Shown here: piece after piece, positions 1,859-34,821 of the stretch
How positions within the stretch are numbered: position 1 is the first letter of the stretch
Layout: each line of letters starts with the position of its first letter
IMG/VR virus record: IMGVR_UViG_2700989535_000005
Coordinates: 1 to 42,420 of that record
Source: a virus
Lineage: Duplodnaviria; Heunggongvirae; Uroviricota; Caudoviricetes
Direction: 5' to 3' (one strand)
Length of the DNA stretch: 42,420 nt
Translations under genes and position numbers: made by a program
The notes under the pieces: generated by a model
Seen by the model: only the letters and a program-made list of their open reading frames with translations
Database searches by the model: none
What the model was told of the DNA's origin: nothing

Positions 1859-2161
1859 ACTGTAACCATCATCATCTTCTGGCAGCGCTTCCCTTCTCCC
1901 GTTATCCAGATTAACCGGGTGGTGCTGAGGATGAGTCCGATATCGCTTGATCCTGAATTCCACATCTATAGCAAAGCGGAAGGATGTCTCAATGTCGTGG
2001 ACACACAGTGTTACAGCCACAAATCTATAGCCTAAGAAAGGTTTATTTTGTAATTAAAGAAGATTTTAAAAACCAGATTACTCATTCATATAGACACCAA
2101 TCCCCTACAGTCATAAAATGCCTCTTTTGAATTGCTTTATCTTCATAACAAGAGGTTATTG

Positions 2162-3181
2162 ATGCTTCGCCACTTAACAGGACTCAGATTTATAGCTGCA
2201 TTAATGGTTTATTTATGCCATTTAAATACAGACTATTTTGGTGTTTTTGTAAAAGAAATGTTTTCCCAGGGATTTATTGGCGTTTCCTTTTTCTTTATTT
2301 TATCTGGCTTCATTCTTTCATATTCATATGAAGACAAGCTAAAAAATGAAGTAACAAGTAAAAGACAGTTTATTCTTTTAAGATTGGCAAGAATTGTTCC
2401 AATGCATCTATTATTAGCCATGCCATTTATTTTACTAACCATTCACTTAAAGAACTTTGATTTTTCAAAAACCTTAACAAATATTTTATTAATGCAAAGT
2501 TGGATACCAAAGGAGGATTACTACTTCTCATTAAATGGTGTATCATGGTCTTTGTCTGATGAGCTGTTTTTTTATTTAATGTTTATTCCGTTGATTTATA
2601 CATCAATTACAAAGAAAGTAATCACTGCAATATCAATTATAACTCTACTATTAACTATATATTTTTTAAAAATTATACAAACAGAAGAACTTAATCACTG
2701 GTTATATTATATATTCCCAGTAAGCCGCTTGGTAGAATTTATTTGCGGCATGATTATTTACGCTTGCTGGAAAAACAGCCGACAGCAGACAGTCGACAGC
2801 CTTTTGTTTTTAATTTCACTATTACCTCTGCTAATAGCTATATATTATAGCAACAACATAAATAATAGTCTACGTTATTCGTTATATTATTTACTCCCCA
2901 TGGTAATATTCTTTACTTCATGCATCTATCTAAGAAATGGAGTCATTCATACTATCCTCAGTTCAAAAACCCTAGAACTATTAGGGAAATCATCATTTAT
3001 TTTTTATTTAATTCATCAACCCATTATATTATTTTGCTTTAAAATCTTTGGACATAACCCCGGACCACTCTATTTAATAGCGCTCCTTGTTATAATAACC
3101 ATAGTCTCAATCATACTTTATAAATTAGTTGAGGAGCCTTTAGAGCTGATGCTAAGAAAACGAATTTTAGCAGTAAAATAA
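2162..3181 (+). CDS. Acyltransferase family 3 integral membrane protein (OafA/Oac-like O-acetyltransferase candidate)
   Basis: About ten predicted hydrophobic segments; N-terminal LRHLTGLRFIAALMVYLCH resembles the conserved acyltransferase-3 N-terminus; visibly AT-rich; ATG at 2162 with AAGAGG 6 nt upstream (the track's TTG start at 2132 is probably an over-extension). Confidence 0.75.
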   Translation: MLRHLTGLRFIAALMVYLCHLNTDYFGVFVKEMFSQGFIGVSFFFILSGFILSYSYEDKLKNEVTSKRQFILLRLARIVPMHLLLAMPFILLTIHLKNFDFSKTLTNILLMQSWIPKEDYYFSLNGVSWSLSDELFFYLMFIPLIYTSITKKVITAISIITLLLTIYFLKIIQTEELNHWLYYIFPVSRLVEFICGMIIYACWKNSRQQTVDSLLFLISLLPLLIAIYYSNNINNSLRYSLYYLLPMVIFFTSCIYLRNGVIHTILSSKTLELLGKSSFIFYLIHQPIILFCFKIFGHNPGPLYLIALLVIITIVSIILYKLVEEPLELMLRKRILAVK

Positions 3182-3183
3182 AT

Positions 3184-3207
3184 AAAACCGCGCTATTGCG
3201 CGGTTTT
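3184..3207. terminator. Bidirectional intrinsic terminator between convergent genes
   Basis: aaaaccgcgc tatt gcgcggtttt: GC stem with A/T runs on both sides; sits between the acyltransferase stop (3181) and the minus-strand gene ending at 3193. Confidence 0.7.
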
Positions 3208-3372
3208 ATCTTCAGGCTTGATGAATTTTTTACCGTCATATGACCAGCCAATACCAACATCTCCAACACATTTAACTATATCCGCTTTTTCTGGCTTAAA
3301 CTCTGACTTACCATCCCATACAACAAGATTTGTAACGACACCATTTTGTACGACTGCATAAATATCGCTCAT
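3193..3372 (-). CDS. Small protein downstream of the tail-fibre gene (possible fibre assembly protein)
   Basis: Internal ATG at 3372 overlaps the fibre stop codon (TAATG); the track ORF 3193..3387 extends 5 codons further upstream. Confidence 0.45.
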   Translation of the reverse strand: MSDIYAVVQNGVVTNLVVWDGKSEFKPEKADIVKCVGDVGIGWSYDGKKFIKPEDKTAQ

Positions 3373-4538
3373 TACTGATACTCCCACACAAGAATATATC
3401 CCTGATTTCCATTATTTCCTGTCGCTGGGCCTGATGACGCCTTATTGTATTTACCTGTCCCGCCAATACCGTATGTCCCAAGCATAGTAGTGGTTATACT
3501 TTCAACGCCAATCGCCTGATCATCACCAAGTCCAAGTGCCCCACATAAATTTGATCGTGAAACTGAATGGAACAGAATCCCTTGCCCTGTAGGAATTGGT
3601 GCTTCTGTTGCACTTCCCCCTGAAAATGGAGGTACCTGCTGAACTTGAGTTGATCCCCTTCCTCCCGGGCATACAAGCAAATCACCAAAGCTTGTATTCC
3701 CGCCGTCACCTCCAGAGCCTCCTGGTCCTGTTCCTGCTACACCACCGCTTCCAATAGTTACTTGCACGGATTCAGGTATAGACTGATAAAAAAATGCTTT
3801 AGCATATGCCCCGTTGGAACCGGCAGCACTTACACCACAGTTATTTGAGGCTGTTGCTGATAAATTGCCACTGGCACCACCACCGCCAACGGCTTCCACT
3901 ATAATTTTCGTTACACCAGGTGATTTGTGATAAGTCCCAGATGATCCAAATACCTGAACCCCCAAAAGCCTTCCTGTTCCATCACCAAGTGTTAAATATT
4001 GTAGAGTTTCCGATACGTTTTTTTTACTTAAAATTTCCCTACCATTTTGAGTCAGCGCTGTCATATCCATTGTTCCAGCACCTGTAAAAAATGCCAGCCC
4101 ATCCGGTATTCCTGTTAAGCTCGACAATGATGTCAGATTATCATTTTTATCCTGTTTATCATTCAGAATGTCTGTCATTCCCAGGTTTTCGAGAGCCGTT
4201 TGCACAGTGCCATCCGATTTGATATCGCCAAACGGATTCTTGCGGCTCAGGTATTCAACAGCAAACCCCGATCCCAGCAATTCAACAAAACCGGGCAGAT
4301 CACCATTATCAAGCACATCCCGTTGCGTTTTATCACTTACAAACTGGGCCAGAGCTGCAGCAATAAAGCTGGCCTGCCGAATAACCTTATTGACTTGCGC
4401 ACTAGAGGCTTTCCCTGCTGTAAATCCGGATAAAAGCGCGGGCAACGCTTCCCATTCCTCCTGCGATATAACATTGGCATTTCGATCCGTTGCAAACGCT
4501 TTAAAGTCATTTTTCGCCATCAGAGTAATACTCCCCAT
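3372..4538 (-). CDS. Tail fibre protein (Gly/Ser/Thr-rich)
   Basis: 388 aa with long low-complexity Gly-rich stretches; last large gene of the tail module. Confidence 0.6.
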   Translation of the reverse strand: MGSITLMAKNDFKAFATDRNANVISQEEWEALPALLSGFTAGKASSAQVNKVIRQASFIAAALAQFVSDKTQRDVLDNGDLPGFVELLGSGFAVEYLSRKNPFGDIKSDGTVQTALENLGMTDILNDKQDKNDNLTSLSSLTGIPDGLAFFTGAGTMDMTALTQNGREILSKKNVSETLQYLTLGDGTGRLLGVQVFGSSGTYHKSPGVTKIIVEAVGGGGASGNLSATASNNCGVSAAGSNGAYAKAFFYQSIPESVQVTIGSGGVAGTGPGGSGGDGGNTSFGDLLVCPGGRGSTQVQQVPPFSGGSATEAPIPTGQGILFHSVSRSNLCGALGLGDDQAIGVESITTTMLGTYGIGGTGKYNKASSGPATGNNGNQGYILVWEYQ

Positions 4539-31582: not shown

Positions 31583-31661
31583 ATGTAAGTATTTCCTTAG
31601 ATAACAATTGATTGAATGTATGCAAATAAATGCATACACCATAGGTGTGGTTTAATTTGAT

Positions 31662-31693
31662 GCCCTTTTTCAGGGCTGGGATGTGTAAGAGCG
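31662..31693 (-). promoter_or_regulatory. nutR (boxA cgctcttac, boxB gccctgaaaaagggc)
   Basis: boxB stem-loop at 31662..31676 and boxA at 31685..31693, read on the minus strand between cro and cII. Confidence 0.8.
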
Positions 31694-31700
31694 GGGTTAT

Positions 31701-31910
<210 letters not shown>

Positions 31911-31925
31911 TTAGTACATGCAACT

Positions 31926-31995
31926 ATTATCACCGCTAGAGGTAAAATAGTCAACACGCACGGTGTTAGATATTTATCCCTTGCGGTGATAGATT
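31926..31995. promoter_or_regulatory. Right operator region OR1-OR2-OR3 with divergent PR and PRM
   Basis: Three 17-bp operator-like sites; PR -10 GATAAT and -35 TTGACT on the minus strand; PRM TAGATA/TAGATT on the plus strand ending 6 nt before the cI ATG. Confidence 0.85.
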
Positions 31996-31998
31996 TAA

Positions 31999-32715
<717 letters not shown>

Positions 32716-32746
32716 TTGTTTTATTTTTCACGTAATAGGATGATTT

Positions 32747-33508
32747 ATGACACAGTTTCAACTTGCATTAATCGCTAGAGAAGTTGATGGAGAAGTCATC
32801 CATCTTCGCACCAAAGACGGATACATCAATGCCACCGCGATGTGCAAGTCTGCGGGGAAGCTACTTGCTGACTATACACGACTAAAAACAACACAAGATT
32901 TTTTTGATGAATTATCACGCGATATGGGGATTCCCATATCGGAGTTAATTCAATCATTTAAAGGCGGAAGAGCAGAGAATCAAGGGACTTGGGTTCATCC
33001 AGACATCGCAATTAATTTAGCTCAGTGGCTATCTCCAAAATTTGCAGTGCAAGTATCGAGATGGGTGCGTGAGTGGATGTCAGGTGAAAGAGCGCCTGCC
33101 GAACTCCCTATCCACCTTAAGCGGTATATGACAAACCGAGGCAGAGTTCCTCATACGCACTTTTCTATGCTTAATGAACTGACGTTTAACTTGGTTGCGC
33201 CACTTGAACAGGCCGGATATACGCTGCCAGAAAAAATGGTCCCTGATATTTCAGAGGGTAGGGTTTTCTCGCAATGGCTCCGTGACAACCGGGGGGTTGA
33301 GCCGAAGACATTCCCAACATATAACCATGAGTACCCAGATGGCCGGACATTCCCGGTACGTCTATACCCAAACGAATATCTTGCAGATTTCAAACAACAC
33401 TTCAACGAAGTGTGGCTGCCTCAGTACGCTCCTAAATATTTTGCTGAACGAGACCAAAGGGCATTGACGTTGATTGAGAAAATCATGCTACCTGACCTTG
33501 ATTCCTAA
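32747..33508 (+). CDS. KilA-N domain protein (253 aa) in the position occupied by rexA/rexB in lambda
   Basis: N-terminal DGYINATAMCKSAGK...GGRAENQGTWVHPDIAINLAQWLSPKFAVQVSRWV matches the recalled KilA-N consensus; AGGA 7 nt before the ATG; 31 nt after the cI stop. Confidence 0.7.
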   Translation: MTQFQLALIAREVDGEVIHLRTKDGYINATAMCKSAGKLLADYTRLKTTQDFFDELSRDMGIPISELIQSFKGGRAENQGTWVHPDIAINLAQWLSPKFAVQVSRWVREWMSGERAPAELPIHLKRYMTNRGRVPHTHFSMLNELTFNLVAPLEQAGYTLPEKMVPDISEGRVFSQWLRDNRGVEPKTFPTYNHEYPDGRTFPVRLYPNEYLADFKQHFNEVWLPQYAPKYFAERDQRALTLIEKIMLPDLDS

Positions 33509-33517
33509 ATGTTATTC

Positions 33518-33542
33518 CCGGCCACAGAGCCGGGTTTTCTTT
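33518..33542 (+). terminator. Intrinsic terminator ending the cI operon
   Basis: cccggc cacaga gccggg followed by ttttcttt, 10 nt after the stop. Confidence 0.7.
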
Positions 33543-33699
33543 GCCTCACGATCCCCCTCACCCAAGAACACATAACCAATTGTATTTATTTGGAAATTAA
33601 TAGATACAACTCACTAAACATCGCAATTCAGATCTCTCGATCACCTTCCCAATCCACACAACCCTGCAAAAAATAAATCTATATAAAAAACATACAGAT

Positions 33700-33762
33700 A
33701 ACCATCTGCGGTGATAAATTATCTCTGGCGGTGTTGACATAAATACCACTGGCGGTGATACT
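33700..33762 (+). promoter_or_regulatory. Left operator region OL3-OL2-OL1 with PL promoter
   Basis: Operator 17-mers aaccatctgcggtgata, tatctctggcggtgttg, taccactggcggtgata; -35 TTGACA (33734..33739) and -10 GATACT (33757..33762). Confidence 0.85.
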
Positions 33763-33942: not shown

Positions 33943-34266
33943 ATGGATGCACAAACACGCCGCCGCGAACGTCGCGCAGAGAAACAGGCTCAATGGAAAG
34001 CAGCAAATCCCCTGTTGGTTGGGGTAAGCGCAAAACCAGTTAACCGCCCTATTCTCTCGCTGAATCGCAAACCGAAATCACGAGTAGAAAGCGCACTAAA
34101 TCCGATAGACCTTACAGTGCTGGCTGAATACCACGAACAGATTGAAAGCAACCTGCAACGTATTGAGCGCAAGAATCAGCGCACATGGTACAGCAAGCCT
34201 GGCGAACGCGGCATAACATGCAGTGGACGCCAGAAAATTAAGGGAAAATCGATTCCTCTTACCTAG
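33943..34266 (+). CDS. N: Antiterminator N
   Basis: 107 aa from MDAQTRRRERRAEKQAQWKA, matching recalled lambda N; the track ORF is extended upstream by 30 codons. Confidence 0.9.
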   Translation: MDAQTRRRERRAEKQAQWKAANPLLVGVSAKPVNRPILSLNRKPKSRVESALNPIDLTVLAEYHEQIESNLQRIERKNQRTWYSKPGERGITCSGRQKIKGKSIPLT

Positions 34267-34821
34267 TTACTTAGATATTGGCCTTGGCTTTATCTCAATA
34301 TTATATGGATCATAGCTGGCAACTAATTCAGTCCAGTAAATATCCTCAATAGGGAATAATATATGCTTCCCGTTCCATCGGGAAAAAGTTTTGTTCAACA
34401 CACCAAGCTCAATCAACTCACTAATGTATGGGAATTGTTTTGATGTAACCACATACTTCCTGCCTTCATTAAGGGCTGCGCACAAAACCATAGATTGCTC
34501 TTCTGTAAGGTTTTGAATTACTGATCGCACTTTATCGTTTTGCATCTTAATGCGTTTTCTTAGCTTAAATCGCTTATATCTGGCGCTGGCAATAGCTGAT
34601 AATCGATGCACATTAATTGCTAGCGAAAATGCAAGAGCAAAGACGAAAACATGCCACACATGAGGAATACCGATTCTCTCATTAACATATTCAGGCCAGT
34701 TATCTGGGCTTAAAAGCAGAAGTCCAACCCAGATAACGATCATATACATGGTTCTCTCCAGAGGTTCATTACTGAACACTCGTCCGAGAATAACGAGTGG
34801 ATCCATTTCTATACTCATCAA
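34267..34821 (-). CDS. sieB: Superinfection exclusion protein B
   Basis: 184-aa membrane protein on the opposite strand to the PL operon, in the lambda sieB position. Confidence 0.7.
   Translation of the reverse strand: MMSIEMDPLVILGRVFSNEPLERTMYMIVIWVGLLLLSPDNWPEYVNERIGIPHVWHVFVFALAFSLAINVHRLSAIASARYKRFKLRKRIKMQNDKVRSVIQNLTEEQSMVLCAALNEGRKYVVTSKQFPYISELIELGVLNKTFSRWNGKHILFPIEDIYWTELVASYDPYNIEIKPRPISK

Follow-up and report, generated by a model that had tools for sequence, protein, structure and literature searches.

The region between cI and N is a mosaic hotspot, which in lambda holds rexAB (Owen et al., 2021; PMC8585504). A stretch of viral DNA of 42,420 nucleotides (IMG/VR record IMGVR_UViG_2700989535_000005, positions 1 to 42,420; hereafter the window) raises the question of what takes this slot when rexA-rexB is missing from an otherwise lambda-like immunity region, and whether the occupant could protect a lysogen as Rex does. 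The window matches, with 100% identity, a lambda-like prophage of Escherichia coli D5 (NZ_CP010145.1, 4610269-4652688, reverse strand), whose gene set comprises int, exo-bet-gam, kil, cIII, ral, sieB, N, cI, cro, cII, O, P, ren, nin, Q and the lysis, head and tail genes. The prophage is apparently complete and is inserted at tRNA-Arg beside fimZ, at the DLP12 attachment site.

The boundaries of the exchange are sharp. Window positions 31642-32716 align with lambda 38300-37226 (NC_001416, BLASTN) at 99.0% identity without gaps, and the match stops 1 nt past the cI stop codon (TGA, 32713-32715). This stretch carries the operators OR1-OR2-OR3 with PRM and PR (31928..31991; PRM rightward on the + strand, PR on the - strand, its hexamers placed at 31954..31926 by the promoter scan), OR3 reading TATCCCTTGCGGTGATA at 31975-31991, followed by the 237-aa lambda-type repressor gene of the ORF list (32002..32715, + strand), which has 99% nucleotide identity to lambda cI and whose product is assigned to the LexA family in the annotation of E. 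coli D5. Homology to lambda restarts at window 33517, equivalent to lambda 35824 and 1 nt past the rexB stop, with a 91% match in BLASTN. Since homology breaks at the stop codons of cI and rexB, exactly rexA-rexB has been replaced and the terminator that follows is lambda's own tIMM: 800 bp of non-lambda DNA (32717..33516, + strand) precisely substitute for 1401 bp of lambda (37225-35825). A preliminary description of this DNA had proposed that a single gene takes the rexAB slot, a substitution which the two junctions show to be exact.

The cassette consists almost entirely of one gene of 253 codons (32747..33508, + strand), annotated in E. coli D5 as the KilA-N domain-containing protein WP_000191544.1, with 30 nt of non-coding DNA on its 5' side and 8 nt on its 3' side. 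An AGGA ribosome-binding site can be read at 32737..32740, 6 nt upstream of the ATG. The intrinsic terminator found by the terminator scan (33517..33544, + strand) aligns with lambda CCCGGCCTCAGCGCCGGGTTTTCTTTG, located directly after rexB, and forms the hairpin CCCGGC-CACAGA-GCCGGG (stem 33517-33534) followed by a T-run; compared with lambda tIMM, its loop is altered. Thus the distance of 31 nt from cI, the gene's own AGGA site and a strong terminator ahead of OL/PL (placed at 33518..33542 by the preliminary description) are all borne out by the ORF list, the sequence reading and the scans. Beyond the terminator lie OL3-OL2-OL1 (33700-33760) and PL (TTGACA-17-GATACT, 33734-33762), together 33700..33762 on the + strand, which were located by sequence reading and promoter scan in DNA with 91% identity to lambda 35824-35496; PL directs N (about 33945-34266). 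Just past N, as in lambda, a 184-aa ORF on the - strand (34267-34821) represents a sieB-type superinfection-exclusion gene, so that the prophage has a second lysogen-protective function near the gene in the rexAB slot. Between PRM and this gene, the terminator and promoter scans of the + strand detected neither a terminator-like nor a sigma-70-like site. By comparison with lambda, an anatomy without intervening terminator or promoter and with a shared tIMM is consistent with co-transcription from PRM.

The domain composition of the 253-aa protein places it in a known family. Its N-terminal ~110 residues had been described as a KilA-N domain, and Pfam KilA-N (PF04383) matches residues 13-112 (32783..33082, + strand) with E=8e-27 and a score of 93.6 bits, above the gathering threshold of 23.8. 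The remaining ~140 residues, previously described as unrecognised, do have relatives. In the PHROGs collection, the full-length protein matches phrog_6287, “BstA abortive infection system, replication inhibitor” (E=1.8e-82), while residues 13-116 match phrog_129, “transcriptional regulator” (E=8e-24), and the PADLOC BstA model PDLC02356 covers residues 120-237 (E=2.5e-20). An NCBIfam search returned no match. Precomputed Pfam annotations list PF04383 and PF26567 for homologues of the 253-aa protein and PF26567 alone for homologues of BstA from the Salmonella prophage BTP1, PF26567 being the domain to which UniRef gives the name “BstA-like C-terminal domain”; the PF26567 assignment derives from these annotations and names, the direct Pfam search, with a set of models that lacks PF26567, having given KilA-N only. 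In BLASTP against BTP1 BstA, residues 133-251 align at 29% identity (E=5e-15). Furthermore, when alignments of 35 sequences from each family were compared profile against profile with hhalign, only the C-terminal domains matched, with 97.7–98.3% probability and E-values of about 1e-12 to 1e-14, the match of 98.3% (E=1.3e-14) covering 131 columns. The motifs FS..E, VPDIS.G..W, H.YPD, YP and F(R/K) are common to the C-terminal domains of both families, and 61 residues are invariant among 35 homologues of 55–86% identity. On this homology, the C-terminal half (residues ~119-253; 33101..33505, + strand) is assigned as a BstA-like C-terminal domain, and the gene in the rexAB slot belongs to the BstA family as a divergent subtype. 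A reading of the conserved VPDISEG motif as part of a PD-(D/E)xK nuclease was considered separately and ruled out, the acidic residue after PDIS being Val in the BTP1 family.

In the N-terminal half, homology between the two families is no longer detectable by sequence. BTP1 BstA has no Pfam KilA-N match, and the N-terminal halves of the two families gave an hhalign probability of 0.3%. Structure prediction brings the two closer together. The AlphaFold2 model of the 253-aa protein (pLDDT 89.6) falls into two parts, of which the N-terminal one adopts a KilA-N/APSES fold and has DNA-binding domains of the APSES and winged-helix kinds as its structural neighbours. BTP1 BstA was modelled by way of P0121, a protein 99% identical to it (pLDDT 82.8), and this model retrieves the same neighbours with lower scores (NyxB 5.8, Ski 4.6, Mbp1 4.5, Dachshund 4.5, Orf22 4.5 and Bqt4 3.9). 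Because the neighbours of both models coincide, the architecture appears to be common to both families: as modelled, each combines a KilA-N-type fold with the BstA C-terminal domain, the first domain being canonical in the 253-aa protein. The helical C-terminal domain of the 253-aa model has no solved structural relative, so that a biochemical activity is not readable from its fold.

Among the characterised members of the family, BTP1 BstA has its gene downstream of cI, is highly expressed in lysogens, co-localises with infecting phage DNA, blocks its replication and causes abortive infection, and it is active against P22, ES18, 9NA, lambda, phi80, P1 and T7 (Owen et al., 2021; PMC8585504). 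The homologues BstA-Ec from E. coli NCTC10963 and BstA-Kp from K. pneumoniae, both of ~300 aa, are protective as well, and a few homologues match in the C-terminal region only (PMC8585504). Short entries in Table S1 of that study, such as the one of 351 bp from Hafnia alvei, probably belong to the same subtype as the 253-aa protein. To judge from the models, BTP1 BstA and the 253-aa protein agree in having a KilA-N-type DNA-binding fold at the N-terminus, next to the homologous BstA domain at the C-terminus (hhalign 98%), and as in BTP1 c1-bstA its gene stands straight after the prophage repressor, here with putative co-transcription. In contrast to BstA, it comprises 253 rather than about 300–307 aa, lacks the variable N-terminal tail and contains a canonical Pfam KilA-N domain whose sequence homology to the KilA-N-like domain of BstA is undetectable. 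Detectable homology to the tested BstA proteins is thus confined to the C-terminal ~130 residues, with 29–31% identity; in BTP1 BstA the PF26567 domain spans residues ~156-307. Compared with other proteins carrying the KilA-N/APSES domain (PF04383), such as P1 KilA, Bro/Ant-type phage proteins, yeast Mbp1/Swi4 and Bqt4, the 253-aa protein shares this domain and differs in its partner, which is the BstA C-terminal domain instead of Bro-C, KilA-C or ankyrin modules. To our knowledge, few KilA-N proteins have been assigned a defence role.

Taken with its position, this homology makes it probable that the gene encodes a BstA-type abortive-infection protein, which the lysogen would express from PRM as the functional equivalent of Rex. 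The Rex-like protective role proposed in the preliminary description was a reasonable guess, given the C-terminal homology to BstA and the rexAB slot, and the protective function attributed to the 253-aa protein rests on that homology; the idea itself is not new (Owen et al., 2021). Counting against the BstA-type reading are the restriction of homology to the C-terminal ~130 residues at 29–31% identity, the 0.3% probability for the N-terminal halves, the strong Pfam KilA-N match that BTP1 BstA lacks, a C-terminal fold with no solved relative and, as described below, the absence of the aba repeat and the many copies located away from a repressor. By analogy with lambda and BTP1, we infer expression from PRM, a defence phenotype and the following mechanism. 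The lysogen would make the protein continuously from the second cistron of a PRM transcript running from cI through the gene to tIMM, as it does RexA and RexB in lambda. During superinfection, the KilA-N/APSES domain would bring the protein to the replicating DNA of the incoming phage, and the BstA C-terminal domain would then block replication of this DNA. The infected cell would die with its progeny unreleased, which amounts to abortive infection.

The resemblance to Rex is one of place and predicted role. Both systems occupy the identical genomic slot with the cI stop on one side and tIMM and OL/PL on the other, presumably share the same PRM/PRE transcript and, as predicted for the 253-aa protein, provide an abortive-infection function in lysogens. 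They have no relationship in sequence or domains: neither Pfam, PHROGs nor PADLOC gave a match of the 253-aa protein to a Rex family, and only the slot and its flanks are common. Whereas Rex is a two-protein system composed of a sensor and a membrane channel, the 253-aa protein is a single soluble protein of DNA-binding type, and its expected target by homology is phage DNA replication, as opposed to membrane potential in the case of Rex.

The same DNA-binding domain allows for a different reading, that of a KilA-N regulator or antirepressor, which would bind specific DNA or a heterologous repressor and modulate transcription of the host or of a co-resident prophage. The canonical KilA-N domain is indeed the strongest single-domain signal, detected also by phrog_129, the structural neighbours are DNA-binding domains, and several phage records label KilA-N proteins as regulators or antirepressors. 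However, the full-length match to the BstA PHROG is better than that to phrog_129 by 58 orders of magnitude, and a regulatory role leaves unexplained the conserved BstA C-terminal domain, which is common to proven defence proteins. An antirepressor co-transcribed with the repressor of its own prophage would moreover be counter-productive. A purely regulatory function is thus considered unlikely.

The BstA-type gene is one of several alternative occupants of its slot. The preliminary description had raised the question of which gene follows cI in other lambda-immunity prophages, on which counts among 5,426 complete E. coli genomes bear: full-length lambda-type cI is present in 618 of them, with rexAB in 99 and the arrangement of cI, the 253-aa gene and OL in 18. 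Elsewhere the cI-N slot contains an NYN-domain gene, a DUF1828 gene paired with a hypothetical gene, or a single hypothetical gene, of 129 aa in EDL933 and of 301 aa in another case (L008-L011, from E. coli MSHS 133, 1070/13, EDL933 and 30345_1#31). Lambda-immunity prophages therefore carry at least five alternative cargos in this slot, rexAB and the 253-aa gene included, and rexAB is a minority occupant in nature (99/618). The other cargos are candidates for lysogen-expressed defence genes.

Several loci retain traces of how the cassette may be exchanged. In E. coli DY612, the cassette (window 32721-33545, 95.6% identical) follows a different S24 repressor and has a remnant of a cI 3' end before it. 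Such a remnant (...GTGTTTGGATGA in L004:2950-3027) lies directly 5' of the cassette although the resident repressor is a different one, and an Enterobacter locus (L013:2894-3000) has two tandem cI 3'-end remnants, AGCAGTGGCCTGA..., in the same place. Such remnants beside foreign repressors place the left junction of recombination at the conserved cI 3' end, and the pattern fits cassette exchange by recombination between this end and tIMM as the right junction. Homologues also accompany other repressors or flanks. Proteus phage vB_BPM-V3 has an 80%-identical homologue after its own cI, and Escherichia phage PhiR5_2, which was grown on MG1655, carries identical cI and gene with otherwise different flanks. 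A literature search on PhiR5_2 and on KilA-N genes after cI found nothing relevant besides Owen et al. (2021).

Beyond the repressor-linked slot, 139 of the 5,426 complete E. coli genomes have a homologue that extends over ≥80% of the gene region, and in about 117 of these the copy, with identities of 77% for DNA and 86% for protein, lies away from cI. This copy is located in the nin region, between replication genes (ydaV/ydaW/LygF) and ninG-Q, on the strand opposite the replication genes and beside a hok/gef toxin gene (L005:3001-3774, L006:3001-3774), and it occurs likewise in phages vB_EcoS-673R7/613R10/666R9. At identities of at least 53%, the subtype extends over many phyla, among them Verrucomicrobiota, Bacteroidota, Planctomycetota, Spirochaetia, Nitrospirota and CPR. 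A scan for the same-strand upstream neighbour in 36 loci identified HTH and Peptidase_S24 repressors in 9–10 and transposases of IS1595/ISXO2 type in six and of IS1 type in three, often at a distance of just 1–46 nt. The transposase-linked loci L059, L061, L064, L069, L074 and L091 (about 2000-3750 in each) contain the Pfam domains DDE_Tnp_IS1595 and Zn_ribbon_IS1595. The nin-region copies and the transposase-linked genes imply that repressor-linked expression is no general feature of the subtype, and the transposase linkage together with the identity across phyla suggests spread as an IS passenger.

This distribution lends itself to the view that the gene is a selfish passenger which serves its mobile element through maintenance, competitor exclusion or replication control and brings no anti-phage benefit to the lysogen, the lambda cI-N slot being one landing site among others, as the cross-phylum identity, the transposases immediately upstream in six to nine of 36 loci and the numerous copies beside hok/gef could indicate. 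Six loci were searched for terminal inverted repeats enclosing transposase and gene, yet none were found. Defence genes are typically borne on mobile elements as well, so that such a context is no argument against defence, and the homologous C-terminal domain has been tied to anti-phage activity by experiment (PMC8585504). A passenger without protective function is accordingly a quite unlikely explanation. A role as lysogenic-conversion factor acting on host physiology or virulence, as opposed to phage defence, is very unlikely: BTP1 bstA (st313-td) was first implicated in Salmonella virulence phenotypes, before its defence role was known, and the prophage studied here carries conversion genes, but Owen et al. 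found no mechanism for the virulence reports and showed that the protein itself acts directly in defence (PMC8585504), and the 253-aa protein has neither signal peptide nor membrane features, its N-terminal domain being a cytoplasmic DNA-binding fold. The conversion genes of the D5 prophage lie downstream of Q and comprise the serum-survival gene iss/bor as well as genes for a lom-type outer-membrane protein and a porin.

The BstA-type reading does not add a new kind of system, since both the kind of system and its rexAB-like position were published in 2021 (PMC8585504). What the window presents is a divergent variant with a canonical KilA-N domain, without the N-terminal tail and without an aba signature, in a textbook lambda immunity region; a BstA-type gene can thus stand in for Rex within the classic arrangement, which keeps the same cI, operators, tIMM and N. 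The locus is an experimental handle and not a discovery. The tractable genetics of lambda and the existence of an isolated phage, PhiR5_2, with an identical protein and MG1655 as a host make for a convenient system in which to approach how the C-terminal domain acts, what KilA-N senses and by what means a prophage without an aba-type repeat is spared by its own defence.

In BTP1, self-protection is conferred by aba, a 63-bp DNA element made up of 29 bp upstream and the first 34 bp of bstA, whose terminal CCCGCC direct repeats are essential, and every homologue has its own cognate aba (PMC8585504). Because the aba sequence is specific to the homologue, the element was sought by its geometry, as the direct-repeat offset with the highest score among 30–90 bp in the region from -130 to +80 relative to the start codon. 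Dereplicated loci of the 253-aa type, 86 in number, were examined alongside a positive control of 39 BTP1-type loci, taken from IMG/VR and likewise dereplicated. In the control set, an offset of 56–57 bp was best in 12 of 39 loci as against about 1.3 expected; the first copy lies between -28 and -41, and the pair straddles the bstA start codon (-45 to +60). The sequence repeated differs by homologue (L093-L172, L001), reading CCCGCCA, GGGCAGCA, GGTCAGCA, CGGTCAA, GCAGCACCCC, GAGCAGC and others. The aba hallmark therefore extends beyond BTP1, whose CCCGCC repeat alone the source paper describes, and the homologue-specific repeats are consistent with cognate BstA-aba pairs.

Among the 253-aa-type loci, the 56–57 bp offset was best in eight of 86 with about 2.8 expected, a weak enrichment. 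Two of the loci contain conspicuous pairs with 56-bp spacing which lie entirely 5' of the gene, namely the 15-mer AGGGTGATCACGAGA at -84/-28 (L026, 2917-2987) and the 10-mer GTCGGCCTTT at -85/-29 (L243, 2916-2981); these may be aba-like elements of the subtype. In the window, an exact repeat search around the ATG at 32747 detected no direct repeat of at least 6 nt, the best-offset test gave scores of just 2–4 for offsets 56/57 anywhere in 32600-33700, and both the spacing histogram and a test for direct repeats on either side of the start codon were negative. The aba hallmark of ~63 bp across the start codon with terminal direct repeats is thus absent from the window locus, and unlike in BstA, no direct repeat spaced 56–57 bp crosses the start codon of the cI-linked 253-aa gene. 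An inverted repeat in the early part of the gene (TCAACTT/AAGTTGA, 32758-32764/32781-32787) was taken as a chance occurrence, as it is not kept in the Proteus homologue.

Without the aba signature, self-immunity of the window prophage, if there is any, must act by other means. It could be as simple as the shut-off of PRM on induction or involve an element not yet recognisable, and an equivalent self-immunity element of another form is conceivable at this locus. That proteins of about 250 aa combining a canonical KilA-N domain with the BstA C-terminal domain form a separate defence lineage across phyla, unusually conserved and travelling both in the lambdoid cI-N slot and beside IS1595-type transposases, with a different phage-sensing module and non-aba self-immunity, is a tentative and rather doubtful proposition. 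If it holds, a phage with lambda immunity and lambda O/P replication would carry abortive infection against lambda-like replication and would escape from it in another way. As a minor observation, three cI-linked homologues (L226, L227 and L229) have in common an intergenic motif, ...GCCAA..ACACACAGCGCGAATCCA.C.AAGATTGGATAGC..., which is conserved about 60–100 nt 5' of the gene and absent from the window. The motif contains a short hairpin (TCCAA/TTGGA) and may represent a regulatory site or a terminator between the repressor and the BstA-like gene.
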